This document shows positions 21,111 to 63,942 of a DNA stretch of 64,000 nucleotides, one piece after another. The first letter of the stretch is position 1; each line of letters starts with the position of its first letter. Source of the stretch: an uncultured Pseudomonadota bacterium. Lineage in GTDB: Bacteria; Bdellovibrionota_B; Oligoflexia; Oligoflexales; CAIMVM01. The stretch lies in NCBI GenBank assembly GCA_903844895.1, contig CAIMVM010000330.1:9255-73254 (forward strand), given 5' to 3'. The notes under the pieces were generated by a model. It was not told the origin of the DNA. It saw only the letters and a list, made by a program, of their open reading frames with translations, and did not search any database. Position numbers and translations under genes: made by a program.

Positions 21111-21120
21111 AGACCACCTT

Positions 21121-26684: not shown

Positions 26685-26739
26685 AGAGTAGCGACGAGTC
26701 TGGACAAGATTAAGGTGACCATCTTGGTAGAAGGGCACC

Positions 26740-27402: not shown

Positions 27403-27418
27403 GTGGGGTACTTTCTTT

Positions 27419-28426: not shown

Positions 28427-28534
28427 GATCTATCTATTTTATCAGCAGCTTGGCAACCCCAGGTGTGTTGTTTTTGCTTAGATGCTAGTCATTAGTGGTC
28501 TAAGGAGTGGGATTGAACTTGTCGGAAGCTGGCG

Positions 28535-29308: not shown

Positions 29309-29381
29309 TCGCTAAAGTCTCCATGCTCTGGGGCCTAAATCATCCGCCCACCTTCGTGGTGAGATCTCAATAGGAGTTTAC

Positions 29382-30488
29382 TTGCCTAATTATAACACAA
29401 CTGTAGCTTCGATACTAATGTATCTGTTTTTTTCCCTTGAGGCAAAATCTGCAGAAATTGCTGATGTATCGGGACCTTCAGCCGTAGTTTTTGGTGACAG
29501 TATTGCCAGTGGTGCCGCCACTCATCCAGCTATGGAGTTTGATGGCGATGTTCTTTGGGAGATATTGAGTGGGCAAAAGTCCGTTTCTCCCCAAAAGGCA
29601 GATGTACCTTTTCTGGGTGATTTGGAATTAGATCCTCCCAGTGTCGTTCTTCCTACTCCATCTGAGGTTATGAATCATCCTCTGATTGCTTCGTCTGAAA
29701 TACTAATGCAGACCATAGGTAGTGTTTTTCTAAATACGGAGGAATATTCTTGGGGCTATCAAGTAGCTAGGAAACAAGGCGTTCCAGGGAAGAAGATTTT
29801 CTTTGCCTCCAGTAATGGGGCCCGTAGCGGGAACTTTTCCGTTCAAGTGCAGAGGTTTTTAAGTCTCTCTGGTGGAAAACTGCCAAAGTTTGTTTTTGTC
29901 ATGCTTACGGGAAATGACCTGTGCTCACCGTATGGCAATGGTGTTACTAGCCCTGAACTTTTTCATTCTAATATCGAAGCAGCAATTAAATTACTTGGGA
30001 GTGCTGTTCCCCATCCAGAGGGAACGCGGCTTATATTAGCCGGCATACTTCCCATCACCCAACTTTATCAGTCTGCTTCCATATTAGATAAAAAAGTAAA
30101 AGCCCATGGTAAAGAAGTGAGTTGTCGAGACTTGCGGGAATCAAGCTTTGCTCGACCAGAGGGGACTGCGGCTAAATATCTTATTCCTGCGCAATTCTCG
30201 CAAGTCTTTCCGCCAAATCCCAGTTTGATGTGTCCGAATCTCTTTGCGCCAGAAAAGCTAATGAAAGATCAGATTTCCGAAGTGGCTACGACGGCTAGTT
30301 TATATAGAGATAAGCTTGCAAGTATTGCTTTGGCCTCTTCAGGCAAGACGAAAGGGCTCAGCGTTGAGTATGTTGGAGAGCTCTCAAAGATTACCCTAGA
30401 CGCTGCAGATATCGCACAGGACTGTTTTCATCTCAGTGCTGTGGGGCATTCCAAAATAGCATCAAAAGTTATCGAAAGCATGCCTTAG
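29382..30488 (+). CDS. secreted SGNH/GDSL hydrolase (lipase/esterase)
   Basis: A TTG start lies 5 nt after an AGGAG and is followed by a signal peptide. Block I is FGDSIASG and block V is DCFHLS. Confidence 0.75.
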   Translation: MPNYNTTVASILMYLFFSLEAKSAEIADVSGPSAVVFGDSIASGAATHPAMEFDGDVLWEILSGQKSVSPQKADVPFLGDLELDPPSVVLPTPSEVMNHPLIASSEILMQTIGSVFLNTEEYSWGYQVARKQGVPGKKIFFASSNGARSGNFSVQVQRFLSLSGGKLPKFVFVMLTGNDLCSPYGNGVTSPELFHSNIEAAIKLLGSAVPHPEGTRLILAGILPITQLYQSASILDKKVKAHGKEVSCRDLRESSFARPEGTAAKYLIPAQFSQVFPPNPSLMCPNLFAPEKLMKDQISEVATTASLYRDKLASIALASSGKTKGLSVEYVGELSKITLDAADIAQDCFHLSAVGHSKIASKVIESMP

Positions 30489-46475: not shown

Positions 46476-47531
46476 CTATGATTTTTTTATGAGATTAAGC
46501 AAGGTGTCTGCAGCGCTCCAGGCCAAGCTCCAAGCACTTTTATGAAAACCGGTAGCAATAAGAGGCCCCAGCCCTTCTTTGCTAGAATATCTGCCCACAA
46601 AAGGGGAACGCCCTGGTCCATTAAGGCGAACACCAACTAAGGGTACCGGGTCAGTAAAATTGAGGGAAAGATCTTTAAGGTCCATTGCTAGTTCCTTAAA
46701 GCCGGCCTCAATTTCTTGCCGATATGTGTCTTCAAAGTCTTCTTTGCGAAGAAAATTTGATATTTTGAAGTCTCTAGCCCCAAACTTCAATTGGTTACCG
46801 TTGGCATTTAGACTTGTTTGTCCTCGCTTCACTGAGGTCGTCAAGGTGCTATTGGCCTGCAAAGCAACTCCTGCCTTATAGGTAAAACCTTCTAAATTCA
46901 TTCCCGACGCTTTAAGAAGAAAAGGTGTGGATGCCCCGGCAGCAATGATTACCTCATGAAACGAATATTGGCTGCCACATGCAGTGTGCAGAACAATAGA
47001 GTCCTGTCTGATTTCCACTGAGGAAACTTGTCGCAAAACGTGTTGTCCCCCTTTCTCCAGATACACTTGAAGTAAAGCATCAAGTGTTTTCTCAGTGTCG
47101 AATGAAAAATCATCCGGATAACAGAGTGCCCCTTGAAAATCAGAGTGGAACCCTGACAAAGATTCTTGACGGGGAAGGATTTGGGTTCCAAAGAGCCCCC
47201 AAAACCGACCATGATATACACGCTCCGCGAGTTTAGCTAATTCAGTTTGGGATTTAAAAGGCTCTAGGATAGATTTTCTTAAATCTAGGCATGACTTAGA
47301 TGATTCTTCTAACTCGGTAAGCTCTTTCCATAATTGGTGATGGCCAGAAATCTTCAACTTAAATAGAGGAGAGTTTCCTTTAAAGAGACCTTTGATGGAA
47401 TTGACGCCAGGGGCTACCGAAGACGCGCCCTTACCGCAGGTAAAAAGGGTAGTTCGGTAGCCAGCATAGGCCAGTTTTCTTGCGGCAGCAAGGCCTACGA
47501 CTCCACCACCAATGATTCCAACCGTCTTCAA
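46476..47531 (-). CDS. FAD-dependent oxidoreductase (DAO / glycine-oxidase-like)
   Basis: Has the N-terminal dinucleotide fold VGIIGGGVVGLAAA. Its length and C-terminal GFHKS region fit the DAO family. Confidence 0.8.
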   Translation of the reverse strand: MKTVGIIGGGVVGLAAARKLAYAGYRTTLFTCGKGASSVAPGVNSIKGLFKGNSPLFKLKISGHHQLWKELTELEESSKSCLDLRKSILEPFKSQTELAKLAERVYHGRFWGLFGTQILPRQESLSGFHSDFQGALCYPDDFSFDTEKTLDALLQVYLEKGGQHVLRQVSSVEIRQDSIVLHTACGSQYSFHEVIIAAGASTPFLLKASGMNLEGFTYKAGVALQANSTLTTSVKRGQTSLNANGNQLKFGARDFKISNFLRKEDFEDTYRQEIEAGFKELAMDLKDLSLNFTDPVPLVGVRLNGPGRSPFVGRYSSKEGLGPLIATGFHKSAWSLAWSAADTLLNLIKKS

Positions 47532-47761
47532 ACGACTTCTTCCCCTTTTGTGTTGTTTATATTGAGGAGCTATAGCAGATCCCTAGGGCTGCCTCCGACG
47601 TCCTCAATAGGCGTCAGATTTATGCCACTTTGAAAAACAAACAGCCAGACTAAATATTGTATATAGCTGTATTTATAGTCTTTTGTCGATGGCGCTAGAA
47701 TTGCTTAACAGCTACCTGTGGGCAAGCTTGTAGCTATGCTCCAACAAAGGAGATTTAAATC

Positions 47762-48856
47762 ATGAAATGGCAAATTAAAGCAAGTTTATCCCTACTGATT
47801 TGTGCATGCTCTGTACCTGATTCCAAGTCTTCAGAAAACGGAAAGTTAGGGAGTGCTAAAGATCGTTCCCTGGTCTATGCCTCTTTGACGAGTCCATTTG
47901 CGATACGAATTAACCTAACAACCAATCGTCTCAGCTACCTCAATGATGGAGTGGTAGTTGCTCAGTGGAATGTCGCCACGGGAGATGTCACTGGAAAACT
48001 GCATGATGGTCGCCCTCAATTTACACCACCTGGCGTTTATTCTGTGGAAGACTTTGTACATTGTCCTCAGTGGATGCCTAGAAATCCTGTAGATCCAAAG
48101 ACAGGTAAGCCTGTAGAAGACGATGCAAGCCGCATGAGAATTTTTGAAGAGAACCCTAGTATATATGGTGGATGCGGAGCTAACAACCCGTTGGGAAAAT
48201 ACGTGCTTTGGTTTAGTGGCCCCTATGGTTTGCATGGGAATAGCAATGAGTCCGTGTTAAAGCGAGCCACGGCCGACGCAAGACGAGTGAGCGGTGGTTG
48301 TGTGAGAAATCCAAATGAAAAAATAAGTTGGTTATTTCATGACATATTGAATAAGTCAAAAGTTTACAGTGGCTTTAGTAAGAAAGTAAAAACACTTGAG
48401 GCAGAAGGAAATAAAAACACTCTTTCTGGCAACGTAGGAAAATTGGGCATTCGAGTGGTTGTAGACTTTTTTGAAAAAGATATGAACGTTGGTGAATCGA
48501 TGCAGATCGCAAAGAGTATAACAAAAATTGCCAAAGTTTCCACCGTCACAGCACCTGATGACCTAGTACGTGTTCAGGTAAAGACTCCGATTCCTAAAGT
48601 GCCTGAAAACTTTCTTCCAAGTGATGGTCAAGGTGACATTAAAGTCTGCAAAGTAGTCTACGTTGAACGTGACGGTTCTGCAAAAGTATATGCAAAACTA
48701 ACAGACCGCAAATCCGATGTCTTGCGTGAACTTAAAATAGACGAAACCGAAAAGGTATATGGGAATGCTGGCGACTGGTACAAACTCATCGACGGCTATG
48801 TACTCAAATCTCGACTTGGCTGCAATAACGTCACTCAAAATCCAAGGGGAGCCTAA
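47762..48856 (+). CDS. L,D-transpeptidase (YkuD domain) lipoprotein with SH3-like C-terminus
   Basis: Has lipobox LICAC, the YkuD catalytic motif GLHGNSNE...SGGCVRN, and a C-terminal GDWYKL segment. Confidence 0.85.
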   Translation: MKWQIKASLSLLICACSVPDSKSSENGKLGSAKDRSLVYASLTSPFAIRINLTTNRLSYLNDGVVVAQWNVATGDVTGKLHDGRPQFTPPGVYSVEDFVHCPQWMPRNPVDPKTGKPVEDDASRMRIFEENPSIYGGCGANNPLGKYVLWFSGPYGLHGNSNESVLKRATADARRVSGGCVRNPNEKISWLFHDILNKSKVYSGFSKKVKTLEAEGNKNTLSGNVGKLGIRVVVDFFEKDMNVGESMQIAKSITKIAKVSTVTAPDDLVRVQVKTPIPKVPENFLPSDGQGDIKVCKVVYVERDGSAKVYAKLTDRKSDVLRELKIDETEKVYGNAGDWYKLIDGYVLKSRLGCNNVTQNPRGA

Positions 48857-49892: not shown

Positions 49893-51659
49893 ATGAATTC
49901 TAAGATACAATTTGTTCTGTCCTATTTCGTATTTTCGTGTGCCGCTCAGCTAATCTCAATCGGAAGCATCGTGGCAGCAGCTCTAGGCTACGATGGCGTA
50001 ATCAAGACGGCCATCATTGTTGGGGTTCAAGCTGTCGCTAACCTCGTCGCGCTCACTCTAGTGAATTCACGGGCGGCAACATCGACTCTTGTTCCAAGTC
50101 TCGGCTTTCCCTTTGTCGCAATATTCATTGCAATAGCGGCAGTTAATTCCTTTCTCTCTCTCGCGTGGTTCGCGTGTTGGTTTGCAAGTTTGGTGGTTGC
50201 GGCATTGCTAACAGCCAGTCTGACGGCGCATGTCCGCGGATTTTTTGCTGAAGAGTGGCAGTCACTCAATCGTTTCGTCCAAATGGCGCATGTAGCGTCT
50301 GCACTGGTTGCGTTTGCGGCAAGCCCGATCATGTATACGTATCTAGGTCTTTCATCTATATTCTATACGTCCGCTGGTATGATTGTCCTGTCATTCGTTA
50401 CCTTTCAGATTTCTTGTCGTACCTATCAAGAAAAGAAATCGATTTATGCTCCTTCCAATACTTCAAAGATTGGGGAAAGATCTGAATTTGATAGATCTAA
50501 TTATGGCTTTGCCATGAATTTGTTTTATTGGTGCACTCTCGGCTTGTTCACTGTGGTTGAGGTCAATATCCTCAAACATCGTTTTGATGCATCAGCATCT
50601 ACGATTTCGTCAATATTCGTGGTGGCTATTCTGACCTCCCTTTTGACATTGCGCGTCCTGCCACTTGACCGACTTATCAAGAATCCAGCCTATTTTATAT
50701 TTGTAGCCGCCGCAATGGCATGCGGTTTTAGCGTGCTATATTTCAATACAAAAAGTATATACATTGTCTATCTCTCAATCGTAGGAATGGGAATTGCAGA
50801 TGGCTGTTTTAAACTCTCAATCTCAATGATCTTGCAGCAAATTACTTCTGAAACAATTCGCCTCAAGGCATTTGTTAAGCAGCGCCTCGCACAATACTTA
50901 GGCACTTTGGTGGCCGTAATGCTTCTCGCTTTTTTCGATCAAGGAAATAGTCCCATGTTGCTGACTAGCATCGCAGTGGGGACCGCATTGATGATGATGG
51001 TAGTATCATCGCGGTACCGTGGGAGATTGACTCCTGCAATCATCATAGCCCCTATCGCATTTGTGCTTATGCCTGCAGTTGGTAAAGCTGACGTCTTTAT
51101 GGTTGGCCTACCTTCCACTCCGTCTCAGCTTGATCCGAGCAGAGTCACGGACGTATCAACTGCTGCGATCACCGGGCAGGTTTTTGATTCCCTTTATGAG
51201 TATACGGTGACTAATGACTTGGTTCCTCGCCTGGCAAAGAAGCATATCCTTTCGCCTGATGGGCTTCAAATTCGCATTACCTTAGATCAAACTCAGCGTT
51301 TTTCCGATGGTGCGAATTTGCGAGCGACTGACGTCGAAAAGTCGCTAATACGGACAATCTCGATTTTAAAAGAAGAGTCTCGATGGGCTTTTGGTAATAT
51401 CAAAGGTTTTGATGCCTTTATTACTGGCTCAACAAAATCTTGCGAAGGAATCCGAGCCTTGTCTGAGGACACTATAGAATTCAAGTTTGATCGCCCATTT
51501 CCGCTATTCTTAAAGATTCTAGCTACACCATATTTCGCGATTTCCAAGTCAAGTTCGACTAATCAACAGATTGGTACAGGCGAATTTATGATTAAATCTC
51601 GAGATTCGGGCGTGGTGATCTTGGCCCGGAAAAATAATCTTGAACCGAAAAAAAATTGA
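49893..51659 (+). CDS. MFS-like polytopic membrane domain fused to the N-terminal part of a family-5 solute-binding domain; reading frame ends inside an A8 tract
   Basis: There are about 12-13 hydrophobic spans in the first ~395 aa. These are followed by SBP_bac_5-type sequence (LDPSRVTDVSTAAITGQVFDSLYEY, RFSDGANLRATDV). The stop TGA at 51657 comes immediately after A8. Confidence 0.7.
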   Translation: MNSKIQFVLSYFVFSCAAQLISIGSIVAAALGYDGVIKTAIIVGVQAVANLVALTLVNSRAATSTLVPSLGFPFVAIFIAIAAVNSFLSLAWFACWFASLVVAALLTASLTAHVRGFFAEEWQSLNRFVQMAHVASALVAFAASPIMYTYLGLSSIFYTSAGMIVLSFVTFQISCRTYQEKKSIYAPSNTSKIGERSEFDRSNYGFAMNLFYWCTLGLFTVVEVNILKHRFDASASTISSIFVVAILTSLLTLRVLPLDRLIKNPAYFIFVAAAMACGFSVLYFNTKSIYIVYLSIVGMGIADGCFKLSISMILQQITSETIRLKAFVKQRLAQYLGTLVAVMLLAFFDQGNSPMLLTSIAVGTALMMMVVSSRYRGRLTPAIIIAPIAFVLMPAVGKADVFMVGLPSTPSQLDPSRVTDVSTAAITGQVFDSLYEYTVTNDLVPRLAKKHILSPDGLQIRITLDQTQRFSDGANLRATDVEKSLIRTISILKEESRWAFGNIKGFDAFITGSTKSCEGIRALSEDTIEFKFDRPFPLFLKILATPYFAISKSSSTNQQIGTGEFMIKSRDSGVVILARKNNLEPKKN

Positions 51660-52461
51660 ATTTCGATCGTATAATGACGCATCGAACCTCGTGGCATTTG
51701 ATTTTAGGATTATCGCGTCAGATGCAGAAATGGTGCTTTTCCCTCCTGAAAAATATGAGAGTCGAGAATTTAATCTCCTTCAAACGATTATTCTTCAGCT
51801 GAACGCTGGACGGAAAGAATTCGCGACTGGCGACGAGAGATGTCGTTTTAGCGCTGCCTTTGCTGAGGAGTCAGCTAAGCAATATAAATGGTCTAAGTTA
51901 TCAGAAGGCCTCCCGTTTTGGACCGACTTTTATGGAAAGACGAAGTTGCCAATAGCTTCGTCGAAAAAAGGTACCAAAGTCACCATCTTGTATGCGAATT
52001 CGGTGGGTCACTTCTCGACTGCGAACAATGATAAAATAAGGGACAAGCTTCTTGCTTCCGGCTATAATATTGAGTTTAAACGACTTGATAGCGCAGACCT
52101 GATCGCCCGCATGCGAGCGAAAAATTATACGGCCACCTTATGGGGTTTTTTGCCGGACTATATCGATCCAGATGCGCTCCTATCTCCTCTCGTGCGGTCA
52201 GGTCAACAGTACAACTGGTCGTCATTCAACAATAAGGCTGTTGACACCTTGTTGGAGCTTGGCGGTAGTGGACTTGATGGTATTGTTCGAAAGCAGATTT
52301 ATGACAAAGTTTTTGATGCCATGGGTAAAGATTGCAGAATATCATTTCTTGGGAGTGAACATGGTCGATATGTCGTCAGTCGTAAATGGGACTTTTCTGG
52401 GCTTAGTGGACTCGGCATGCTAACTGCAAGATTTCGTGATGTAAAAAGGAGAGCTCCTTGA
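51640..52461 (+). CDS. C-terminal part of the same family-5 solute-binding domain (+1 frame relative to the previous ORF)
   Basis: The sequence continues the SBP5 fold (TLWGFLPDYIDPDALLSPLV, SFNNKAVDTLL). It has no signal peptide of its own and no credible SD. Confidence 0.65.
   Translation: MNRKKIEFRSYNDASNLVAFDFRIIASDAEMVLFPPEKYESREFNLLQTIILQLNAGRKEFATGDERCRFSAAFAEESAKQYKWSKLSEGLPFWTDFYGKTKLPIASSKKGTKVTILYANSVGHFSTANNDKIRDKLLASGYNIEFKRLDSADLIARMRAKNYTATLWGFLPDYIDPDALLSPLVRSGQQYNWSSFNNKAVDTLLELGGSGLDGIVRKQIYDKVFDAMGKDCRISFLGSEHGRYVVSRKWDFSGLSGLGMLTARFRDVKRRAP
51648..51655. repeat. A8 homopolymer at the frameshift junction
   Basis: Eight A counted. Removing one A joins the two frames as ...NNLEPKKIEFRSYND... 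Confidence 0.95.
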
Positions 52462-53819: not shown

Positions 53820-55760
53820 ATGCGTATTTCGAAACTGTTAATTCGACGTGTTGCCGCAATGTCAGGCCTCTATGTCTTTATGATTGGTCTAATGTTAGTT
53901 GTTTACGTAAATTCTTTATTTGCTAGAGAAATTAAAGAGGTTTCCGAAGCTGAAGTTAGGACAATTGAACACATAGTTGAGCAATACTATGGTGTGGGTG
54001 ACCTTGTTAATTTGCGAATTGGACTCAATGCATTTGCCAAGCGTGAGTCGATTGTTGAGGCGGAATTAACTAATGTCGATGGTCAAGTTATTTGGTCTGT
54101 ACATTCACAAGTATCTAGCGTCTCGCAAAACGTCGATTGGGATCTTTTTAGATATTTTTTTCTGGCAAATGGTGATTCTAATAAGTTAGTCCTACAGCGT
54201 TCGGTGATCAAGAACTGGAAAGATGAGGATATTTGTACTGTTGCCTGGAAACGGTCTCTGAATCATGAGTGGGCCGAACATCGACGACAGCTGGGTGTGT
54301 TTGCATTGGCGATTCTTGCATCATGGCTGCTCTATTTGGCGATCTTGCGACACGTAGCTACTAGGACATTGAGTCCAATGCATCAAATGAGTGAACGTGT
54401 TCGAGGGATTGGGAATTCAATTTCACTGACTCTTTTAGATGATCGTGGTGAGGACGAAATTCAGATGACTACAAGGTGGTTCCGGGAACTCGCAGAGGCC
54501 TGGGGGGAAGAGTCAAAAAGGGCTATTGAGGCGCAAAAGGCGGAAGCGATCGCCCGCACCACCCAAATGCTGGCCCATGACGTTCGCAAGCCTTTTTCTA
54601 TGCTTCGTGTGGGTCTGGCTATGCTAGGTAAAGCCAAGGACCCGGAAAGTGTCAAGAGGGTGATGTCTCGCGTCGTTCCGGAGATTGACCGGGCTATGAT
54701 TAGCGTCGACGGAATGCTTGCTGATGTGATGGAAGTGGGTTCTACATCAGGTATGTTGATTCAAGAACCAGTAAGTCCTGAGTCTCTGCTTGAATCGACA
54801 CTTGGAGATGTTGTTCGGATGTATCCTGAGGCGGATATTTCCCTGTCGTATGACCTTAATCATACACACATGGCTAATGTCCACATTCAGAAAATAAGCA
54901 GGGTATTCTCCAACATCGTTGGCAACTCTTTCCAAGCAATGAGATATAGGGGTTCCATGTGGTTTAGTACTTTTGAGTCAGATGGCATGATTAGGTTCTG
55001 CATAGGTAATGATGGCTCATGGATTCCCGAAGAAAATCTACCCAATCTCTTTGACGCTTTTTTTACTAGTGGCAAAAAAGGCGGCACCGGTTTGGGTCTT
55101 GCTATTGCACAAAAAGTGGTAACTGCTCACGGCGGCAAGATTTGGTGTGAATCAAGTAAGACTCCAGAGCGCCCTGAGGGCAAGGTGGAATTCTTCTTTA
55201 CAATGCCTGTTTCTAACCAAGTTAATTCAGCGACTGCAAATCTTCCGAAACACAGCTCTGACATCGCAAAACAATTGACCTTGTTAACTGAAACTAATTC
55301 CTCCTTAACAAGCATGGACAGGGGAGAGTTATCACTTGAAGAAGACATTGTGGCAGCGCATTTGTCTATGGGGTGCGCTTTGCGGGTTTTGATTGTGGAT
55401 GACGAATCTATCTACAGGAGTGCTTTGGTGTCACATATGACAAGAACCCCGGAGTTAAGTAAAGCGTTAGTACTTACGCAGGCTGATAGCTCTACTGGCG
55501 CACTGCAGGCAGTTGGAGACCAAGAATACGACCTCATTATTACAGATGTCGACATGGGCAAAATGTCGCTAAATGGCTTTGAACTCGTGACCGAATTGAG
55601 AGGCCGTGGGTCCAAAGCGCTAATTTGTGTTCACTCTAACCGCATCATTGCCGCAGACAATAAGACTGCGATCGAGGCTGGAGCTGACAGTTTTATACCA
55701 AAACCCATGGCTCACGCGCAGCTTCTGAGGCTACTTCTGCAAGCCGCTTCCGCGAGATAG
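53820..55760 (+). CDS. hybrid sensor histidine kinase / response regulator
   Basis: Two TM spans flank an extracytoplasmic domain of about 130 aa. It has H-box MLAHDVRKPF, N-box NIVGNSFQA, G-box GGTGLGLAIAQ and a C-terminal receiver (VLIVDDES, DLIITDVDMG, PKP). Confidence 0.9.
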   Translation: MRISKLLIRRVAAMSGLYVFMIGLMLVVYVNSLFAREIKEVSEAEVRTIEHIVEQYYGVGDLVNLRIGLNAFAKRESIVEAELTNVDGQVIWSVHSQVSSVSQNVDWDLFRYFFLANGDSNKLVLQRSVIKNWKDEDICTVAWKRSLNHEWAEHRRQLGVFALAILASWLLYLAILRHVATRTLSPMHQMSERVRGIGNSISLTLLDDRGEDEIQMTTRWFRELAEAWGEESKRAIEAQKAEAIARTTQMLAHDVRKPFSMLRVGLAMLGKAKDPESVKRVMSRVVPEIDRAMISVDGMLADVMEVGSTSGMLIQEPVSPESLLESTLGDVVRMYPEADISLSYDLNHTHMANVHIQKISRVFSNIVGNSFQAMRYRGSMWFSTFESDGMIRFCIGNDGSWIPEENLPNLFDAFFTSGKKGGTGLGLAIAQKVVTAHGGKIWCESSKTPERPEGKVEFFFTMPVSNQVNSATANLPKHSSDIAKQLTLLTETNSSLTSMDRGELSLEEDIVAAHLSMGCALRVLIVDDESIYRSALVSHMTRTPELSKALVLTQADSSTGALQAVGDQEYDLIITDVDMGKMSLNGFELVTELRGRGSKALICVHSNRIIAADNKTAIEAGADSFIPKPMAHAQLLRLLLQAASAR

Positions 55761-55824
55761 CTGCGGGCCCAGAATTTAGCGCAAAAGGCAAATGGTGAAG
55801 GGAAATAAAAAGGTTGAACTTTGA

Positions 55825-55852
55825 TTGACAGATTCTGAAGTGTAGTTACTAT
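55825..55852 (+). promoter_or_regulatory. candidate sigma70 promoter of the TA locus
   Basis: Reads TTGACA (55825-55830), N16, TACTAT (55847-55852), immediately upstream of the 13-bp repeat array. Confidence 0.35.
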
Positions 55853-55916
55853 GTAGCTCAGCTGTGTAGCTCAGCTGTGTAGCTCAGCTGTGTAGCTCAG
55901 CTGTGCAGCTTAGAGG
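55841..55916. repeat. 13-bp tandem repeat (TGTAGCTCAGCTG), 4 perfect copies flanked by degenerate copies
   Basis: Perfect units lie at 55852, 55865, 55878 and 55891, with degenerate units at 55841 and 55904. Each unit contains the CAGCTG palindrome. Confidence 0.9.
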
Positions 55917-55922
55917 TTAGTT

Positions 55923-56210
55923 ATGCAAATTTATGGTGCGGAATCGATACTTCATAAAATCGAAACAACTCACGGGGTGACCTTGATCGAGATTTAAGAA
56001 GCTTTTTTCCTTCACAAAGGGCATAGGCTTATCGACGATCGTGGACGAAATAAGACTACTCCGCCAACGGTATGGTTTATCGGTGAGACTTCCAGTGGTA
56101 GCCTGCTTAAAATTGTTATTATCCCGTATCTCGATAAGGGTATTTGTGTCTTACGCACGGCATACGAACCAGATTTAACAGAGGTGAGGCTTTATGAGCA
56201 AAATAACTAA
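55923..56210 (+). pseudogene. BrnT-like (DUF497-type) toxin gene interrupted by an in-frame TAA
   Basis: The frame from ATG 55923 reads MQIYGAESILHKIETTHGVTLIEI, then TAA (55995-55997), then continues in the same frame as EAFF...WFIGETSSGSLLKIVIIPY...LRTAYEPDLTEVRLYEQ up to the TAA at 56208. No start codon follows the internal stop. The 3' end overlaps the antitoxin ATG. Confidence 0.55.
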
Positions 56211-56478
56211 AAAAGAAATGGAAAAAATCTCTAAGGAAGCCTTGAATGATGGCGACCAAGAGAGGTGGGAGAATAAAGAACTAGGCAATTCCGTTGAATT
56301 TGCGAGGCGAGTTAACCCAACAGCAATGGATAAGTTAGAGCCTACCTCAATTCGATTGCCCCATTCGCTGATTATTGACCTTCGGGCTCTTGCGGAGGCG
56401 GAGGGATTTAGTAGTTACCAGACTTACCTTAAAGTAGTATTGACTCAACATGTGAAGGAGAAAAAAAAGGCCGGTTGA
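56194..56478 (+). CDS. BrnA-like / CopG-type ribbon-helix-helix antitoxin
   Basis: The C-terminal TSIRLPHSLIIDLRALAEAEGFSSYQTYLKVVLTQHV resembles the BrnA pattern (RL....l...K..A...G.gYQt.i...L). Confidence 0.7.
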   Translation: MSKITKKEMEKISKEALNDGDQERWENKELGNSVEFARRVNPTAMDKLEPTSIRLPHSLIIDLRALAEAEGFSSYQTYLKVVLTQHVKEKKKAG

Positions 56479-56994
56479 GTTTAAAAGGTCTTCCTTATGG
56501 TAGAGAAATCAACATGCGGTTTGTCGGCTGTGTCGAATTGTAGCTTCTATTAGGTTCATCTGTGCTCTCTTTAAAATATTTGTCGCACAGGGGGACCAAT
56601 ATATAACCTGCAATATGACCAGCTCTCCACGAAGTTCTGAGTTTTTTCTCGTGGCATGCAACTGAAGTGGAGTGAAAGTTTTTCTCTAATACTATTTTTC
56701 TCTTTTTTATTTGGCAATAATTTCGACGAACTATTTTGTTTGCCTTATGAAGTGATAAATCATTATTCTGCGAGTTTATAGAAATCTTTAGAAGTCTCTA
56801 TTCTTTTTACGTGCGCTAAATATGAAGATCATATTCAATCTCTATCTTGATTGCTAACAAGAAGAATTTTTTGATTGCTTGTAATTTCTTTGATGTCTGA
56901 AGTAAGTCCTTCTCAAGTTGGGGATTTGAGAAGGCGGAGTCAAGTCCTGATGATATTAGGTCGGAGTGGCCCTTCCCAAGTGGGGGTGCTGCGA

Positions 56995-58176
56995 CTACAA
57001 TGCCACTGGTTCAGACAAATGTAGTTGATTTTTCAACTCGTCAAAAAGGCTTGAATCATTTGCTTCTTTATTGGCAGCAAGGATTACTTTTCTAATTTCA
57101 GACTCTCGAGTTTCAATGGCCTCGGTGAGCTTAAATTGTATGATGGCTCGTTCGAGATTGTGGTTAATGTGTTTTACTTTAAAGTAGGTGTTGTTTTCTA
57201 AGTAATCAGTAAAGAAGCGCATTCCCAGTTCAAAGGAAATCAGTCGTGCCGAGTCATAGAGGTATTCATAATCCTCTTCTGTAAAGAAAGAAGAGGCAAT
57301 CGAAAGATACCCTTTTAAGATTTGCTTGGACATAGTGACATCGAAATCAATAGAACTAAGATCTGTGCACTCCTCGCCCGCGGTATTGCAGGATGATCTC
57401 AGGCAATCCCCAATGTCATATTGAACGAGGCCGGGCTTAACAGTATCAAGATCAATTAAAGCTACTGCTTGCGCGGTGTCATTGTCTAACATAATATTGG
57501 CGGTTTTAGGGTCTCCATGAATGGGTCTGACTTTTAATGTCTTTTTTGCTGCGGCATCCTCCAAAACGGAACACCAAGAGGCTCTTTGGTCAATAAACTT
57601 GAAGCAGTAGTTTTCATCAAGTGTCGTGGTTGGCGACGATCTATTGAGTGCAGCATCCTGGAATTTTTGTAGGTATTTTGGGGTAATATGAAAGCCAGGC
57701 AAAGTATCATGCAGTTCTGTCGGTTTTAGGTTAGAGATCAATGACTGAAAGAGTCCAAGACCAAACCCAACTTCGAAACCATGGAGTGGATTTTTAATCT
57801 TTTGGTGTGCTGTAGCATTTTCTACATAGGTGATAGCCCGCCAAAAGCCAAGATCTTCATCGATCCAAAAGGCGTTCGGGTCTGAAGAGTCAGTTGGTTG
57901 AGTATACAGGACGCTGGGGACGACCCAACGTCTGGATTGGGGAAGAGGGGTTTTTTCTAATACTCTCTGGGTGTGATCTGCGATGCTGCACATATTTGCT
58001 ATGACTAGCTTTGGGTTTTTAAAGACTTTAGTATTGAGCCTTTGTAAAATAAATCGACCTTTATCCTTTGTCGAAACGACAAAGGTGTCATTTACATTTC
58101 CACCTGGATGCTCTTCAATGTTGATAACATTGTGCCATCCTGCAAACTTTTTAGCAGCTTCAATAGCGCGATTCAA
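56995..58176 (-). CDS. APH/choline-kinase-fold phosphotransferase (putative sugar or small-molecule kinase)
   Basis: Has catalytic loop IHGDPKTANIM and metal-binding LIDLDT. The size (393 aa) and N-terminal GGNVNDTF nucleotide loop are reminiscent of methylthioribose-kinase/hexosamine-kinase relatives. Confidence 0.75.
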   Translation of the reverse strand: MNRAIEAAKKFAGWHNVINIEEHPGGNVNDTFVVSTKDKGRFILQRLNTKVFKNPKLVIANMCSIADHTQRVLEKTPLPQSRRWVVPSVLYTQPTDSSDPNAFWIDEDLGFWRAITYVENATAHQKIKNPLHGFEVGFGLGLFQSLISNLKPTELHDTLPGFHITPKYLQKFQDAALNRSSPTTTLDENYCFKFIDQRASWCSVLEDAAAKKTLKVRPIHGDPKTANIMLDNDTAQAVALIDLDTVKPGLVQYDIGDCLRSSCNTAGEECTDLSSIDFDVTMSKQILKGYLSIASSFFTEEDYEYLYDSARLISFELGMRFFTDYLENNTYFKVKHINHNLERAIIQFKLTEAIETRESEIRKVILAANKEANDSSLFDELKNQLHLSEPVAL

Positions 58177-58188
58177 ATGAGACTCCTG

Positions 58189-58932
58189 TTACAATTTGAG
58201 GCGGTCAAATAGAAAACTAGGGATATGCCTAATGATAAACATCACAGTCCGCCAATAAAATGGCGTATAGATGACTTTTCGATGGCGACTCATGCCCTTG
58301 GCAATTTCTTGTCCCACAACTTCTGGCTTTGCCAACAAGGGACTCTGGATATTAAGGGATTGGGTCATAGGAGTCGCCACCATGCCAGGCTTGATGAGTG
58401 TTAGGGATACCCCCTGATGGTAGAGATAGTTTCGCAGTCCTTCACAAAACACAGAAAGTCCGCCTTTAGCGCTTCCATATACAAAATTACTCATGCGCCC
58501 GCGGTCGCCGGCTACGGAGGAGATGACGCCAATATTTCCCTCTTTTTGCGTTACAAATACTCGCGAAAAAAGAATTAGAAGAGAGACTTGAGAGAGATAG
58601 TTAGCATGTATCTCTGACATAGCCATTTCGACGTTTCCTGCTACTTGGCTTTGGTCAAGTAGAGTGCCGTGGGCTACTAAGAGATGGTCAACTTTATCGA
58701 AGCATTTGGAGGCTTCCTCAATAATTCTGGGGTGTGCACTTTGATCGAGGAGGTCTTGTTTGTGAAGTACGACGCGAGTGGCTCCAAATGAAATCAAATC
58801 TTCTTTAACTCGAGACAGCTTCAAGTCGTCTCTAGCGACTAAAAAAAAGTTGGCATTTTCTTTAGCCCAATAGCGGCAAGCGTGTAGGGCTATGGCTGAC
58901 GTGGCTCCGATGACGATTATATTTTTAGCCAT
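58189..58932 (-). CDS. SDR, DprE2-like (decaprenylphospho-2-keto-ribose reductase family)
   Basis: Has a VIGATSAIA Rossmann motif and a YGSAK catalytic YxxxK. It overlaps the DprE1-like gene by 8 nt. Confidence 0.75.
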   Translation of the reverse strand: MAKNIIVIGATSAIALHACRYWAKENANFFLVARDDLKLSRVKEDLISFGATRVVLHKQDLLDQSAHPRIIEEASKCFDKVDHLLVAHGTLLDQSQVAGNVEMAMSEIHANYLSQVSLLILFSRVFVTQKEGNIGVISSVAGDRGRMSNFVYGSAKGGLSVFCEGLRNYLYHQGVSLTLIKPGMVATPMTQSLNIQSPLLAKPEVVGQEIAKGMSRHRKVIYTPFYWRTVMFIIRHIPSFLFDRLKL

Positions 58933-60235
58933 TCTTTACGACTCTCCTGATAAAACTAGATGAAATATTAGGATCCATCCATTGTTTGAAATCTTCAAAT
59001 TCTGGGTAATAGTTTTTAAACTGACGAGGGTCCATTTTGCTATCTTTAGCGGGATAAAGTTTTCCACCAGCGTCGTCGACAATTCGGTCTAATATCTGAA
59101 ATAACTTATCAGTCTTTGGACCCATATTTGCAAAATCAAGCGCCAAAGTATAGCCAGGTTCAGGAAAGGACAGGATTCCAGGGGAGGGAACATCCCCAAA
59201 CTTCTTTAGAACTGCTAGAAATGAACTCATTCCGGAGCGAGCGATGCGGCTGAAGATCTCTCTAAGGGCATTTTTCTCGCTGGAGGGTATGACAAATTGA
59301 TATTGGAAAAAACCACGTTTTCCGTAGATTTTATTCCAATCGTGAACCTTGTCCAACGGGTAGAAAAAGGGGTCATAATGCACTGTGCTCACCATCGATT
59401 TGGAAATCTGTTTGTGATAGAAAAGTTGATTGAATACTTGAATCGTTGGCTTGGAAAGCGCAGCCTCAGGGAAGTTAAATGGGACCATGAGTTTAGGCTT
59501 CACAGACTTATGAGGAAGCGATGGATCCTTAGAATGGTTGCCTCTCATAAAGATGCCACGGCCTAAATTTTTTCCTGTAGAAACGCAGTCTACCCAAGCG
59601 ACGGTATACTCATGAGATAAGTCGGATTCATCAGAGATTTGAAAAAATTCATCAAGACCACCGAACTTTATATTTTCTGTATCAAACCAAGGCATTTCCT
59701 TAATGAGCTTTAGTTCAATCTCCAGCATGACTCCTGTTAGACCCAAGCCAGCAACGGTTGCCTTAAATAAAGGCATTTCTGGTGTTAAATCATGAATGGT
59801 GCCATCGGTTCTTAAAAGCTTAATTGCGGTAATGTGATTTCCAATAGTTCCTCTGACATGATGATTCTTGCCATGCACATCATTGGCTACGGCGCCCCCC
59901 AAAGTTACATACTTTGTGCCAGGGGAAACTGGCAGAAACCAGCCGTGCGGAATGGCAAGATCCAAGATATCTCCCAGAGTCACGCCCGCTTCACATCTCA
60001 TGTGGCCGGTTTCACGGTTAAAGGACACGAATCGGTTCAAACTTTTCATGTCCATCAAGGTTTGATCTTGGTTTAAGCAAGAATCGCCGTAGCTTCGCCC
60101 TAGTCCATAGGGCAAAAGGATTTGATTTCTATTATTTTTTAACGATTCTACCACATCTTGTATCCAAGCTGGTTGGATGACGGAATGTGAGTAATGAAAG
60201 AAACGGCCCCATGATTGATAAGTATTAGTTTTCAT
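58925..60235 (-). CDS. FAD-dependent oxidase, DprE1-like (decaprenylphosphoryl-beta-D-ribose 2'-oxidase family)
   Basis: GLGRSYGD, PGTKYVTLGGAVANDVHGKNHH..GTIGNH and ATVAGLGLTG closely parallel the M. tuberculosis DprE1 blocks as I recall them. Confidence 0.85.
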   Translation of the reverse strand: MKTNTYQSWGRFFHYSHSVIQPAWIQDVVESLKNNRNQILLPYGLGRSYGDSCLNQDQTLMDMKSLNRFVSFNRETGHMRCEAGVTLGDILDLAIPHGWFLPVSPGTKYVTLGGAVANDVHGKNHHVRGTIGNHITAIKLLRTDGTIHDLTPEMPLFKATVAGLGLTGVMLEIELKLIKEMPWFDTENIKFGGLDEFFQISDESDLSHEYTVAWVDCVSTGKNLGRGIFMRGNHSKDPSLPHKSVKPKLMVPFNFPEAALSKPTIQVFNQLFYHKQISKSMVSTVHYDPFFYPLDKVHDWNKIYGKRGFFQYQFVIPSSEKNALREIFSRIARSGMSSFLAVLKKFGDVPSPGILSFPEPGYTLALDFANMGPKTDKLFQILDRIVDDAGGKLYPAKDSKMDPRQFKNYYPEFEDFKQWMDPNISSSFIRRVVKNG

Positions 60236-60242
60236 CCATGCC

Positions 60243-61673
60243 TTAAAGTAGTTTAGAAGCTAATAGAGAAAGGGCAATAACGAATAAGAGAAAATAGCTC
60301 GATTTGTCTTTGACGGCAAAAAGGATAGGATCTGAATTCATTTGCCCTCGGTCTGTGAGTAGCCAAACTCTTGATATCCAGTAAAGCAAAACAATAGCTA
60401 TGGCTAAAAGATATCGTGGTGATTGGTAAAGTTGGACAATCACAGGTTGATTTACATACATGGCAAAAATAACTACCGAAGCCATTCCTGATCCCACTCC
60501 CAAGGCGTTAACCATGGCGAGATCGTCCGTAAAGTAACCTCTACCACCCGCTTTCTTCTTATTTAAGGAAAGCATAAGTTTGAGTTCCGTCGAGCGTTTT
60601 GCAAATGCCAAACTCAAAAAGAAGAACATGGAAAAAGCCATGAGCCAGAAAGTGAGGCGTGTTTCTGTTACAACACCCCCAGAAAGAATCCTCCAACTAT
60701 ATAGCCCTGCTAAAGTAAAGGCATCTAGTATGGGAATTTTTTTCAACTTAAACGAATAGATGGTCGTTAGAATATAGTAACCGAGGAGCGCTAACAACAA
60801 ACGCTCATTAGCCCAAGCAGCGATGCCCATTCCTAATACAAATAGAAGGCCCGCCATGACAAGCCCTTGAGGAAGAGAAACACTCCCTCTGGCAAGCGGT
60901 CGGTTTCTTTTTTCGGGATGCTGACGATCAGAATCTAGATCCACGATATCATTTAGAAGATAAACACTGGAGGCGATTACCGAAAATGCAATAAATCCTA
61001 AAAAGGCGTTCCGCCACAATGCGGCTTCGTCCAGTCGATGGGCGAGTATCAGGGGAAGAAAGATCAAAAGATTTTTTGCCCATTGATGGATGCGAAGAGC
61101 TTTGTTCCAAGCGGTCCATCGCGATTGCTCAGGCTCAATCCATTTTACAACCGGCACAATTTTCTCGGCTTGTTTTCGCAGGGAGTTAGGTCCAACAACA
61201 ATGGCACCTGCGGATTCGCGCCAGACGTCAAGATCAACACTAGCATTTCCTGCGTAGAAGAACGGCCGGCAGTCGGCAGGAATAGCTTGTGATTTTGCCT
61301 TTCCAGCTAAATTCAAGGATTCTTCATTTGTGCTTAATACCCGTTCAAAGAAGCCGAGATGTTCTGAAATGCTCAAAGCAATAGACTTATGAGCTGCAGT
61401 AGCTAAGATCAGTTTTCGCCCTTTAGCCCGTTCGCGACGCAAATAATGTAACAATTCATTGTTATAAGGTAGCTGAGCAGGGTCTAGAGAGATATGCTTC
61501 GCAACTTCTATTTTAAAGCCAGCCTTTCCTTTAAACAGCCAAAAAGGAATTTGAAAGATGAGAGAAGGCTGGCTTTTTATGAGTTTAAAAAGACTTTCAA
61601 TGAGAGTGTCTGTGCTAACTAGAGTACCGTCAAGATCGACTACTATATAGGAAACATTTTCATTCAGAGTCAC
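60243..61673 (-). CDS. HAD phosphatase domain fused to UbiA-family polyprenyl-phosphate phosphoribosyltransferase (Rv3806c-like)
   Basis: The N-terminus has the HAD motif I VVDLDGTLV. The C-terminal polytopic domain has NDIVDLDSDRQHPEKRNRPLARG, the NDxxDxxxD motif in the DPPR-synthase context. Confidence 0.85.
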   Translation of the reverse strand: MTLNENVSYIVVDLDGTLVSTDTLIESLFKLIKSQPSLIFQIPFWLFKGKAGFKIEVAKHISLDPAQLPYNNELLHYLRRERAKGRKLILATAAHKSIALSISEHLGFFERVLSTNEESLNLAGKAKSQAIPADCRPFFYAGNASVDLDVWRESAGAIVVGPNSLRKQAEKIVPVVKWIEPEQSRWTAWNKALRIHQWAKNLLIFLPLILAHRLDEAALWRNAFLGFIAFSVIASSVYLLNDIVDLDSDRQHPEKRNRPLARGSVSLPQGLVMAGLLFVLGMGIAAWANERLLLALLGYYILTTIYSFKLKKIPILDAFTLAGLYSWRILSGGVVTETRLTFWLMAFSMFFFLSLAFAKRSTELKLMLSLNKKKAGGRGYFTDDLAMVNALGVGSGMASVVIFAMYVNQPVIVQLYQSPRYLLAIAIVLLYWISRVWLLTDRGQMNSDPILFAVKDKSSYFLLFVIALSLLASKLL

Positions 61674-61752
61674 TACACTAAAATCCTTTGAGTGGTTGAT
61701 CCCCTGAATGGTAACCTAGAGTATAGCTTGCCTCAAGGATAAAAGACTCTGT

Positions 61753-62637
61753 TTAGTGACTCGAAGAAGGCATATTTACGGAAACGACATCAAGATAGGT
61801 TTGCCAGCCGTCGTCTCTTGTAATGAAGGGACTTACAAATTTGAGTGTAGGGACCCAACTTTTGCCCAATTTTAGTCCTATGGCAAACTCATGACGAAAT
61901 GCCCGAAGACCGTAACTCTCGTAGAGTTCGCTGGTGAATTGCCTGATTTGCCTAAAATCGAAAGTAACTCCCTTGTTTCTTCCAAAGGGAATCTTTAATG
62001 AAGTTTGCGCATAGCCTTCTTTCATAAAGGGGTTGCTGTGTGCACCGAGAATTAGCTGGTATTCTGAGCCCCATAGGTTCCCCAGGCGCCCTGTTTGAAA
62101 ACCAGACGACAAGGTATTACCTTCCACCGGTGAGTCATAATAAAGGTTGGAAGAAATGTTGTTCATGGCGCGGTGAAACGAGCTCTGAATGGATTTGGCA
62201 CCATGATTCCCAATATTGCCAAAACCAGCCTCGAGCTGGCCAAAGAAGATTCCAAAGTCTGTATCAAAAGATTTTCTATAGGCCGAGTCGATGGAAATCC
62301 AGTCAGAAAACACCCCGTCTCTACTCGCGGTATCTGTCTTCTCAAAATTAGTTCTAGTATCGGGGGTAATAAATCGCCAGTTTCCGGTAATTTCAAGGCT
62401 GTCCCTAGAATCTATTTCCCAAAGCCCTCCTAAATAGAACATATTCGTAAGATGTCGATCTGTGCCGCCAAAGAAGTCATTGTAAAAGGGATGAAAAAAG
62501 TAACCTTCATCTGTTTGATGAAGAGTTCCCGTTTCTCCTATGTGGCCATGCTTTGCGGCTCTTTCAAAGGTGTTTCCTCGTGAAAGAGAGCTCACTACAA
62601 GTTGGCTACTAAGGTAAAATAACATCAAGCGGCGCAT
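61753..62637 (-). CDS. LpxR-family (DUF2219) lipid A 3'-O-deacylase-like outer membrane protein
   Basis: Has a signal peptide and a beta-rich sequence. YNDFFGGTDRHLTNMF resembles the LpxR ENDxFxGxDRxYTNG motif. The family call is from memory only. Confidence 0.55.
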   Translation of the reverse strand: MRRLMLFYLSSQLVVSSLSRGNTFERAAKHGHIGETGTLHQTDEGYFFHPFYNDFFGGTDRHLTNMFYLGGLWEIDSRDSLEITGNWRFITPDTRTNFEKTDTASRDGVFSDWISIDSAYRKSFDTDFGIFFGQLEAGFGNIGNHGAKSIQSSFHRAMNNISSNLYYDSPVEGNTLSSGFQTGRLGNLWGSEYQLILGAHSNPFMKEGYAQTSLKIPFGRNKGVTFDFRQIRQFTSELYESYGLRAFRHEFAIGLKLGKSWVPTLKFVSPFITRDDGWQTYLDVVSVNMPSSSH

Positions 62638-62850
62638 TTTGAGTCTCCACGTCTAGCGCTCCTCATCGGGGGTTTTGTGACTTCCTTAAGGGAATTGTGG
62701 ATATTTATAAGATGAGGCTTTTTTTAGCGTGTAATCAGGCGGTTACAATATGCTCGTAAGGGAGCGTATAATTTAAGAGGCTGTCCTTTGGCTGAAGCTG
62801 TCCCTACCAAGCTGGGGGTTAGTTTCGGGAAATATGTTGGAAGGAGACAA

Positions 62851-63942
62851 ATGAAAGAGCCCCTAGTGGAAGAGATTTGGTTTGAACGAAAAAATTTAGG
62901 ATTAAAGATGGCTTTTGCTATTTCCAAGGGAACCATGGAAAGCTCCGACAATGTCTTTTTCTTTGTAAAAGATTCGGCCGGTAATTTTGGGATGGGGGAA
63001 GCGGCTCCCTTTCCCGTCCTAACCTTAGATACTGCAGAAATAGTCTGTCAAATTGCAAAAGAATTGGTTTCTAGTTTCATAGGAAAGTCTATTGATGAGT
63101 CGCTACGGGATATTTTAGGGCCTTTAAGGAAAAAATATTGGTTTCAGTCTCCTACCGTGCTAACCGGCCTCGAAATGGCTTTTTGGGATATCAGGGCAAA
63201 GCAGATGGGTATGTCTCTAAGCCGAGCATTTGGATTCGCAAATCTAGAGTCCCTGCGCACTGATATCACTTTGCCTATAATGAGTGTCGATAGAGTGTCT
63301 AAGTTTTGGGGAGTTTTTTCCAAACATGAGTTTTCGGAAATAAAGGTAAAGGTAGGCGGAAATGCAGTTTCTGTAGACGCAGACAGGGTCGAAGAAATTG
63401 CGCGATGTGCCCCCCCCGGAACAAAAATTAGCTTGGATGGCAATCAAGGCTGTACGGTGGACTCTTCGTTACAATTGCTGGATTCTCTCCTAAAGAGAGG
63501 AATCACTCCAACCCTATTTGAACAGCCTCTTCCGGAAAAAGAATTTGAGGGCATGGCGGAGCTCACCCAAAAAACAACTATTCCCATTTGTGCAGACGAA
63601 CTCGTCAAAACGAAAGAGGACGCCATAAAAGCCGTAGTTGGAAAATGCTGTAGGATGATTAACTTGAAGTTTATGAAATCAGGAATTCATGAAGCTGTTA
63701 TGATCGCTAATGTTGCTAAAAGTGCGGGATTAGATCTTATGATAGGAGGCATGGTCGAATCTGAAATTGCCATGACCGCTTCCCTTCATTTTGCTTGTGG
63801 TGGCGGTCTTATCAATTGGCTAGACTTAGACACACCCTTCTTTTTTCAAGATACCTTAACTGAAGAAAGTCCTTGGCATCCAGGCAAAGCAAAGTTAATT
63901 TGTCCCACTGGCGAGGGTATGGGACTAATTTGGAAAAAGTGA
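62851..63942 (+). CDS. dipeptide epimerase (L-Ala-D/L-Glu epimerase type, enolase superfamily MLE subgroup)
   Basis: The ATG at 62851 lies 3 nt after an AAGGAGA. It has the KVKVG KxK motif, metal ligands LDGNQG, FEQP and CADE, a second catalytic Lys in NLKFMKSG, and GGMVES. Confidence 0.85.
   Translation: MKEPLVEEIWFERKNLGLKMAFAISKGTMESSDNVFFFVKDSAGNFGMGEAAPFPVLTLDTAEIVCQIAKELVSSFIGKSIDESLRDILGPLRKKYWFQSPTVLTGLEMAFWDIRAKQMGMSLSRAFGFANLESLRTDITLPIMSVDRVSKFWGVFSKHEFSEIKVKVGGNAVSVDADRVEEIARCAPPGTKISLDGNQGCTVDSSLQLLDSLLKRGITPTLFEQPLPEKEFEGMAELTQKTTIPICADELVKTKEDAIKAVVGKCCRMINLKFMKSGIHEAVMIANVAKSAGLDLMIGGMVESEIAMTASLHFACGGGLINWLDLDTPFFFQDTLTEESPWHPGKAKLICPTGEGMGLIWKK

Follow-up and report, generated by a model that had tools for sequence, protein, structure and literature searches.

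What does a Gram-negative bacterium make with genes that resemble the mycobacterial route to an arabinofuranose donor, and do the genes on either side of them belong to the same pathway? The question is raised by five co-directional minus-strand open reading frames (ORFs) on contig CAIMVM010000330.1, from an uncultured freshwater Gram-negative bacterium. We analyzed a stretch of 64,000 nucleotides of this contig (positions 9,255 to 73,254 of the forward strand), hereafter called the window and numbered from its first letter. The three central genes, which we call the triad, encode a fusion of HAD and UbiA domains, a DprE1-like FAD (flavin adenine dinucleotide) oxidase and a DprE2-like short-chain dehydrogenase/reductase (SDR); the outer two encode a predicted outer-membrane barrel protein and a sugar kinase. 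From sequence comparison, we think it likely that the triad makes, in the cytoplasm, the donor for a pentofuranose glycosylation system of the polyprenyl-phosphate-linked kind and that the barrel and kinase genes are lineage-specific flanking genes. All five ORFs lie at the coordinates first reported, as follows, in the direction of transcription:

61753-62637, minus strand: barrel gene, 294 aa, N terminus signal-peptide-like
60243-61673, minus strand: HAD-UbiA fusion gene, 476 aa
58925-60235, minus strand: DprE1-like FAD oxidase gene, 436 aa
58189-58932, minus strand: DprE2-like SDR gene, 247 aa
56995-58176, minus strand: NahK-like kinase gene, 393 aa

The motifs that the first-pass annotation of this DNA had quoted for the triad, NDIVDLDSDRQHPEKRNRP, GLGRSYGD and HGKNHH, are all found in the translated ORFs, as are the shared strand of the five genes and the 8-nt overlap that it described. 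The HAD-UbiA protein matches both the HAD and UbiA families of Pfam and scores 592 bits against NCBIfam PRK08238, above the cut-off of 351. Its N-terminal HAD domain carries a DLDGT motif at residues 13-17, and its C-terminal UbiA domain, with ≈7 transmembrane (TM) helices, contains NDIVDLDSDRQHPEKRNRP. Among all solved structures, the top Protein Data Bank (PDB) sequence match of the UbiA domain is Rv3806c (8j8j, E = 2.3e-23), to which it aligns with the Asp-rich NDxxDxxxD(R)xHPxKRxRP motif in register. Across 33 homologues, Asp13, Asp15, Gly16, and Thr17 of the HAD domain and Asn241, Asp242, Asp245, and Asp249 of the UbiA domain are invariant. The HAD domain is predicted to be a phosphoribose 5-phosphatase (PRP) and the UbiA domain a polyprenyl-phosphate 5-phosphoribosyltransferase (PPPRS).

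The oxidase belongs to Pfam FAD_binding_4 (PF01565), and its top PDB match is DprE1 (4aut, E = 1.4e-76), with the next family that is not DprE1 at 7.5e-9. Alignment to DprE1 places the catalytic lysine of the AKDS motif at the equivalent position. The SDR (Pfam adh_short) is matched best by DprE2 (21gq_C, E = 3.4e-32), the next SDR following at 3e-12, and scores 261 bits against NCBIfam PRK07102, under the cut-off of 267. The oxidase and reductase thus match DprE1 and DprE2 best, and not unrelated FAD or SDR families. These matches identify the three core proteins as specific homologues of mycobacterial Rv3806c, DprE1, and DprE2. Because each protein of the triad matches its mycobacterial counterpart best and by wide margins, synthesis of a lipid-linked D-arabinofuranose (D-Araf) donor, as the first-pass annotation had proposed, is the best reading of the triad.

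The oxidase has an alanine, within PGYTLALDF, where Mycobacterium smegmatis DprE1 has the cysteine of PGWNVCVDF. We take this cysteine to be the covalent binding site of benzothiazinones, and the oxidase would be predicted from its sequence to be insensitive to these compounds.

With all chemical steps inferred from homology to the mycobacterial and Pseudomonas enzymes, the pathway would begin with the UbiA domain, which would join phosphoribosyl pyrophosphate (PRPP) to polyprenyl phosphate to give polyprenyl-phosphate-ribose 5-phosphate. The fused HAD domain would then remove the 5-phosphate, the DprE1-like flavoenzyme would oxidize C2' to a 2'-keto intermediate, and the translationally coupled DprE2-like reductase would reduce this to polyprenyl-phosphate-β-D-arabinofuranose. 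A flippase and a glycosyltransferase of the GT-C class encoded elsewhere in the genome would deliver Araf to an envelope glycan or protein. The module is flanked upstream by the gene of a putative outer-membrane hydrolase, a remote LpxR-superfamily member with the catalytic Asn-Asp/Thr/His set retained, and downstream by that of a NahK-type anomeric sugar kinase.

The spacing of the genes bears on how the kinase relates to the triad. The start of the SDR gene lies over the stop of the oxidase gene in the 8-nt overlap (58925-58932), and the same overlap occurs in two relatives, L001 and L003. Gaps of 7 nt separate the HAD-UbiA and oxidase genes, 12 nt the SDR and kinase genes, and 79 nt the barrel and HAD-UbiA genes. 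Because the 12-nt gap is kept in relatives (11-12 nt in all three sub-lineages that carry the five-gene block), the kinase gene is probably co-transcribed with the triad. In the 79-nt spacer (61674-61752, minus strand), neither a consensus terminator nor, on the coding strand, a sigma-70-like promoter is present. Taken with 10 nt of flanking sequence per side, it forms a long hairpin (-31.4 kcal/mol, z -3.1); the hairpin notwithstanding, the spacer sequence differs in L001 and L003 and is not conserved.

The triad is an already known and widespread module, to which the source lineage adds one more instance. The first-pass annotation had described such sets as occurring sporadically in Gram-negative bacteria, a description that does not hold. 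Among the candidates scored, more than 5,000 proteins are homologous to the HAD-UbiA fusion at E ≤ 1e-10; its nearest named relatives are Oligoflexales at 47% identity. A scan limited to one genome per species yielded at least 80 HAD-UbiA loci, which span Pseudomonadota, Acidobacteriota, Nitrospirota, Myxococcota, Bacteroidota, and other groups. Among the matches listed, a DprE1-like gene adjoins the HAD-UbiA gene in 51 of 80 loci and a DprE2-like gene in 41 of 80, in an order that is nearly always the same. The same HAD-PPPRS architecture has been characterized biochemically in Citrobacter youngae ORF15, which makes polyprenyl-phosphate-ribofuranose from PRPP (Kelly et al. PNAS 2024, PMC11127046). 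In that work, three-component systems consisting of a PPPRS, a flippase, and a GT-C are termed a widespread strategy in Gram-negative bacteria, and in the Gram-negative organisms surveyed DprE1/E2 homologues accompany Araf glycans, whereas a single SDR goes with xylofuranose (Xylf) (PMC11127046). In Pseudomonas aeruginosa, the homologues are needed for glycosylation of pilin with D-Araf, and the transferase gene is unlinked to the donor cluster (bioRxiv 10.1101/2020.04.19.049825). The core finding therefore adds one lineage to a recognized strategy for placing Araf on surface glycans and changes nothing by itself.

We also looked by eye, without hidden Markov models, at what neighbors the triad in other loci (L016-L095). 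The recurrent genes are NAD-dependent epimerase-like (10 loci), FAD amine-oxidase-like (10 loci), GtrA-like (5 loci; a small membrane protein), and sugar-1-phosphate nucleotidyltransferase genes (5 loci), and in 7 loci the gene immediately upstream encodes an 8-TM protein. A membrane protein of GT-C size stands obviously next to the triad in just 2 loci.

The first of the two flanking genes to consider is that of the kinase, whose assignment to the APH fold was sound and can be refined. The protein matches Pfam APH, and its residues 10-366 align with residues 14-352 of Bifidobacterium longum NahK (E = 2.8e-47), that is, over the full length. The catalytic loop (HGDPKTANI here, HNDTKLNNI in NahK) and the Mg-binding aspartate of IDLDT, a motif present in both, are kept. 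By these sequence criteria the protein is a NahK-family anomeric sugar 1-kinase, and its substrate is probably a sugar of the N-acetylhexosamine (HexNAc) type. A methylthioribose kinase of the MtnK type was considered and ruled out, NahK chains being the sole matches even at E values up to 1. Cyanobacteria, Nitrospirota, and other groups commonly carry homologues of ≈50% identity; in one of two contexts inspected SIS, BadF, and GntR genes lie alongside, and in the other a gene for N-acetylglucosamine (GlcNAc) 2-epimerase.

These contexts bear on an alternative that we regard as possible, if not the one we favor: that the kinase, and perhaps the barrel protein, serves salvage of cell-wall or amino sugars apart from Araf, phosphorylating GlcNAc or N-acetylgalactosamine at C1 to feed UDP-HexNAc pools, the genes forming an operon of convenience. 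The full-length resemblance to NahK and the company kept by the ≈50% homologues agree with this, as do surroundings of a cell-wall turnover type, with genes for an L,D-transpeptidase (YkuD), a DAO oxidase, an Ala-Glu-epimerase-like protein, an M20 peptidase, and a protein combining major facilitator superfamily (MFS) and SBP_bac_5 domains. Against it, the 11-12-nt gap between the SDR and kinase genes in all three sub-lineages argues for co-expression with the Araf genes, and no nucleotidyltransferase partner is adjacent. The tight coupling of an anomeric sugar kinase gene to a DprE2-like gene is unique among the Araf loci examined, and if the kinase does act in the pathway it would suggest a step not yet described, for example salvage or preparation of an acceptor.

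The barrel protein, the other flanking gene product, had been labeled LpxR-like. It has no Pfam or NCBIfam match, Pfam LpxR (PF09982) not being matched even at E = 10, and searches with the single sequence and with an 8-sequence profile against families and the PDB also returned no match. A word-indexed search found 7 close homologues, whereas an exhaustive profile search of 1.84 billion proteins gave 94 representatives, counted at 50% clustering. An alignment of 63 family members reveals four invariant residues (Asp54, Asp60, His155, and Gln279), with Gly57, Thr59, and a few others nearly so and Asn53 conserved in at least 90%. Four of these 63 proteins weakly match Pfam LpxR, the best at 9.6e-5. 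Searched against PDB sequences, the family profile finds LpxR (3FID) at the top with E = 0.037 and places His155 opposite LpxR His122 (A121-H122); hhalign of the family against three annotated plasmid LpxR proteins covers the same region with the same His pairing (E = 8e-5, probability 61%).

An AlphaFold2 model built from the 63-sequence alignment, with a mean predicted local distance difference test score (pLDDT) of 87.8, has 12 strands; between strands 5 and 6, a helix (residues 147-157) bears His155. Foldseek places LpxR (3fid) first for this model, with E = 2.3e-9 and a TM-score of 0.63, four orders of magnitude ahead of the next barrel (5e-5). It supersedes an earlier model from 8 sequences (pLDDT 64.5), for which LpxR was marginally ahead of FapF and autotransporter barrels.

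The active site of LpxR comprises Asn9, Asp10, Asp11, Thr34, Lys67, and His122, the last on the loop-3 helix, and its catalytic and Ca2+-binding residues include Asn9, Asp10, Thr34, and His122 (PMC6260217). The barrel protein has an LpxR-type motif, Y52-N53-D54-FFGG-T59-D60-RHL-T64, in which Asn53 and Asp54 end strand 1 and position 64 is Thr or Ser in the family; the segment NDFFGGTDRHLT64N fits the pattern NDxF..G.D..Y[TS]NG of annotated LpxR proteins. These N-terminal residues were matched to LpxR by their motif and their place relative to the strands rather than by a scored alignment. The predicted model and the aligned residues make the barrel protein a remote member of the LpxR superfamily, outside Pfam LpxR, with a plausibly intact hydrolase site, and a putative Ca2+-dependent lipid ester hydrolase. 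The LpxR-like label thus stands as regards remote homology, fold, and catalytic residues, but not as a match to a standard family model. This small, unannotated, and very divergent branch widens the sequence range of the enzyme fold and merits a family model of its own.

At its C terminus (61753-61770), the source-lineage protein ends in ...NMPSSSH, a short polar extension past the last strand that close relatives also have. In more distant family members the last residues are IPF, IEW, or IPL, which represent the classic aromatic β-signal.

Whether the adjacency of barrel, triad, and kinase is meaningful depends on how far it extends. The complete block is kept in a narrow clade of three sub-lineages, with barrel proteins 55-91% identical and kinases ≈64% identical. 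The gene spacing is alike in all three, and the block is intact though the sequence 3' of the kinase gene varies between them.

In the window, this downstream DNA (53820-56994) contains a CopG-like ORF (56194-56478) and a hybrid histidine kinase gene, along with ≈500 nt that are non-coding. In L106, a sister strain whose MR_MLE protein is identical, the corresponding region (274-2947) contains ISAZ013-type transposase fragments and an AAA_14 gene, and in L001 a YkuD gene follows directly.

Given this variable DNA beyond the kinase gene, the five-gene block ends at a variable junction. Outside the clade the association disappears. The barrel and kinase genes are both absent from all 80 of the other HAD-UbiA loci among the matches listed, and HAD-UbiA relatives of 50-53% identity sit in ordinary polysaccharide clusters. 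Barrel relatives of 25-36% identity have no triad nearby, and a metagenome scan with a 13-sequence barrel alignment found 7 loci, 0 of which have the triad. On the far side of the barrel gene lies a sixth gene to be considered:

62788-63942, plus strand: divergently oriented enolase-superfamily gene, L-Ala-D/L-Glu epimerase-like, MR_MLE_N and MR_MLE_C domains; 188 bits against the Ala-Glu epimerase model, below cut-off

This MR_MLE gene adjoins the barrel gene also in L001, L003, L013, and L106, with an M20 peptidase gene next, outside the window, and is probably a syntenic neighbor rather than part of the pathway. Conservation of the divergent MR_MLE and M20 genes equals that of the five-gene block itself. 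The adjacency of barrel and kinase genes to the triad is lineage-specific and explicable by synteny alone, and it therefore lends little support to lipid A as the acceptor. A functional link between the barrel protein and the triad is conjectural. Conservation of an LpxR-like neighbor holds within this clade but fails in the other loci listed and among distant barrel relatives. The suggestion that the target could be lipid A or lipopolysaccharide (LPS) drew on this adjacency, which is weak evidence, and a lipid A target is unsupported speculation.

For these reasons we consider it unlikely that the five genes form a single operon for remodeling lipid A or LPS, in which LpxR-like deacylation would accompany addition of Araf to lipid A or core in the manner of ArnT and 4-amino-4-deoxy-L-arabinose (Ara4N), with the kinase in support. 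Such an operon would fit the co-directional genes, the 79-nt spacer without consensus terminator or coding-strand sigma-70-like promoter, the persistence of the whole block in three sub-lineages despite varying downstream sequence, and the catalytic LpxR residues kept in the barrel. These features are set against a barrel and kinase found in 0 of 80 loci elsewhere, distant barrel relatives that lie away from any triad, and MR_MLE and M20 genes that are equally conserved, so that plain synteny accounts for the adjacency. Moreover, an ArnT-type GT-C was not found nearby, and none of the literature that we retrieved describes Araf-modified lipid A. Very doubtful in our view is the broader proposal that an Araf module was recruited to an operon for outer-membrane lipid remodeling, where an LpxR-superfamily hydrolase, the kinase, and polyprenyl-phosphate-Araf would together yield a pentofuranose-decorated, under-acylated lipid A or other glycolipid; the literature that we retrieved contains no description of such a modification.

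Returning to the reading that we prefer, a D-Araf donor module with lineage-specific flanking genes, several observations weigh against it. The oxidase reaches 386 bits (2.4e-115) against the DprE1 equivalog of NCBIfam (NF053785), under the cut-off of 500, and by this measure is a DprE1 homologue outside the actinobacterial equivalog. The SDR reaches 174 bits against the DprE2 model NF053786, under the cut-off of 250. Because both scores fall below their cut-offs, identity of substrate and product with those of the mycobacterial enzymes is something that we infer. For the flanking genes, the sequence evidence that links the barrel to LpxR is weak (E 0.037; E 8e-5 at 61%; no Pfam match), the link coming mainly from predicted structure, and we know of no Araf pathway that requires an anomeric sugar kinase.

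The search for a transferase adds to these points. In agreement with the first-pass annotation, which saw no GT-C in the window, hydropathy and Pfam scans found no GT-C and no flippase (MATE, SMR, or GtrA) in the 64 kb, nor is there one in the 10 kb past the right window edge. Only three window proteins, namely FeoB, the HAD-UbiA protein itself, and an MFS-SBP5 protein, have 7 or more TM helices. The system is therefore incomplete within the window and the adjoining 10 kb. The flanks of L001, L003, and L106 likewise contain no GT-C or flippase. The absence of a GT-C here is unremarkable because the donor and transferase genes of P. aeruginosa are also unlinked, and by analogy the transferase gene of this organism may be unlinked as well.

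That the oxidase/reductase pair yields a product other than Araf, whether the 2'-keto intermediate, another epimer, or a different modified polyprenyl-phosphate sugar, is highly improbable: it would fit scores under the curated DprE1/DprE2 equivalog cut-offs and the finding that differing auxiliary epimerases give differing pentofuranoses, for example Xylf (PMC11127046), but DprE1 and DprE2 are the best and highly specific matches, the catalytic lysine is kept, in the surveyed Gram-negative organisms Araf is accompanied by DprE1/E2 homologues and Xylf by a single SDR (PMC11127046), and similarly divergent homologues in P. aeruginosa make D-Araf (bioRxiv 10.1101/2020.04.19.049825).

Farther out, genes of a peptidoglycan-turnover type surround the cluster (46476-48856 and 62788-63942) and are syntenic in relatives; they encode the YkuD, DAO-family oxidase, Ala-Glu-epimerase-like, and M20 proteins. 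Past the right window edge (L106, 10973-20965) lie the M20 peptidase gene and a 225-aa ORF, together with a gene whose 2,914-aa product resembles cyclic β-1,2-glucan synthase and contains Glycoamylase, GH94_b-supersand, and Glyco_hydro_94 domains. The product of this last gene was considered as a GT-C candidate and rejected on account of its GH94/cyclic-glucan-synthase-like character. On the plus strand, 49893-51659 encodes a 12-TM MFS-like protein whose C terminus falls in the first third of an SBP_bac_5 domain, and the next ORF (51640-52461), which overlaps it by 20 nt, has the end of that domain; the pair (49893-52461) is either a pseudogene or an unusual fusion of MFS and solute-binding protein that a frameshift or an assembly error has divided. 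Two further stretches (7578-9188 and 20337-30488) are rich in hydrolases, namely a proprotein-convertase P-domain protein, a NAGPA phosphodiester glycosidase, an S9 dipeptidyl peptidase, an M24 Xaa-Pro dipeptidase, an S33 hydrolase, and a GDSL lipase, and would fit a proteolytic or predatory lifestyle.

Comparison with known systems sets the flanking proteins apart from the triad. Like Salmonella LpxR (PDB 3FID, PF09982), the barrel protein has a predicted 12-strand barrel, an Asn-Asp pair ending strand 1, a TDxx[LY][TS]N motif before strand 2, and an invariant loop-3 helix His aligned with the catalytic His122; unlike it, the protein is ≈13% identical to LpxR, has no match to the Pfam family, and belongs to a very small separate one. 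The kinase shares with B. longum NahK (PDB 4WH1 and 4OCJ) full-length APH-fold homology and the HxDxKxxN and DLD motifs, but it lies outside any galacto-N-biose/lacto-N-biose (GNB/LNB) catabolic cluster, has no adjacent GalT/GalE or nucleotidyltransferase gene, and is probably part of an Araf-donor operon.

The triad itself can be set beside three known pathways. With the Gram-negative three-component system of C. youngae O1/O2 (ORF15, MATE, and the GT136 GT-C), it shares a synthase with an N-terminal HAD and a C-terminal UbiA domain, and epimerizing helper genes that adjoin the synthase gene, here DprE1/E2 of the Araf-associated type (PMC11127046). It differs in that no MATE, SMR, GtrA, or GT-C gene lies in the window or the 10 kb beyond, in that the cluster is outside an O-antigen or polysaccharide locus, unlike those of L005 and L006 (50-53% HAD-UbiA identity), and in that genes for an LpxR-fold barrel and a NahK-like kinase are present instead. 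The mycobacterial pathway to decaprenyl-phospho-arabinose (Rv3806c, Rv3807c, DprE1 Rv3790, and DprE2 Rv3791) has homologous transferase, oxidase, and reductase components whose catalytic motifs are kept here, and the adjacent, in this case overlapping, oxidase and reductase genes fit the known DprE1-DprE2 complex. In contrast to that pathway, the phosphatase here is a fused HAD domain in place of the Rv3807c type (PAP2), the lipid is presumably C55 instead of C50, alanine replaces the benzothiazinone-reactive cysteine, and no Emb or Aft transferases are linked. The P. aeruginosa Pa5196/PA7 system (PsPA7_6245-6249 and TfpW) differs in having a separate phosphatase and a GtrA-like protein and in having no kinase and no outer-membrane barrel, but it too combines homologues of decaprenylphosphoryl-5-phosphoribose (DPPR) synthase, DprE1, and DprE2 in a Gram-negative organism, and its GT-C transferase gene is likewise unlinked to the donor cluster.

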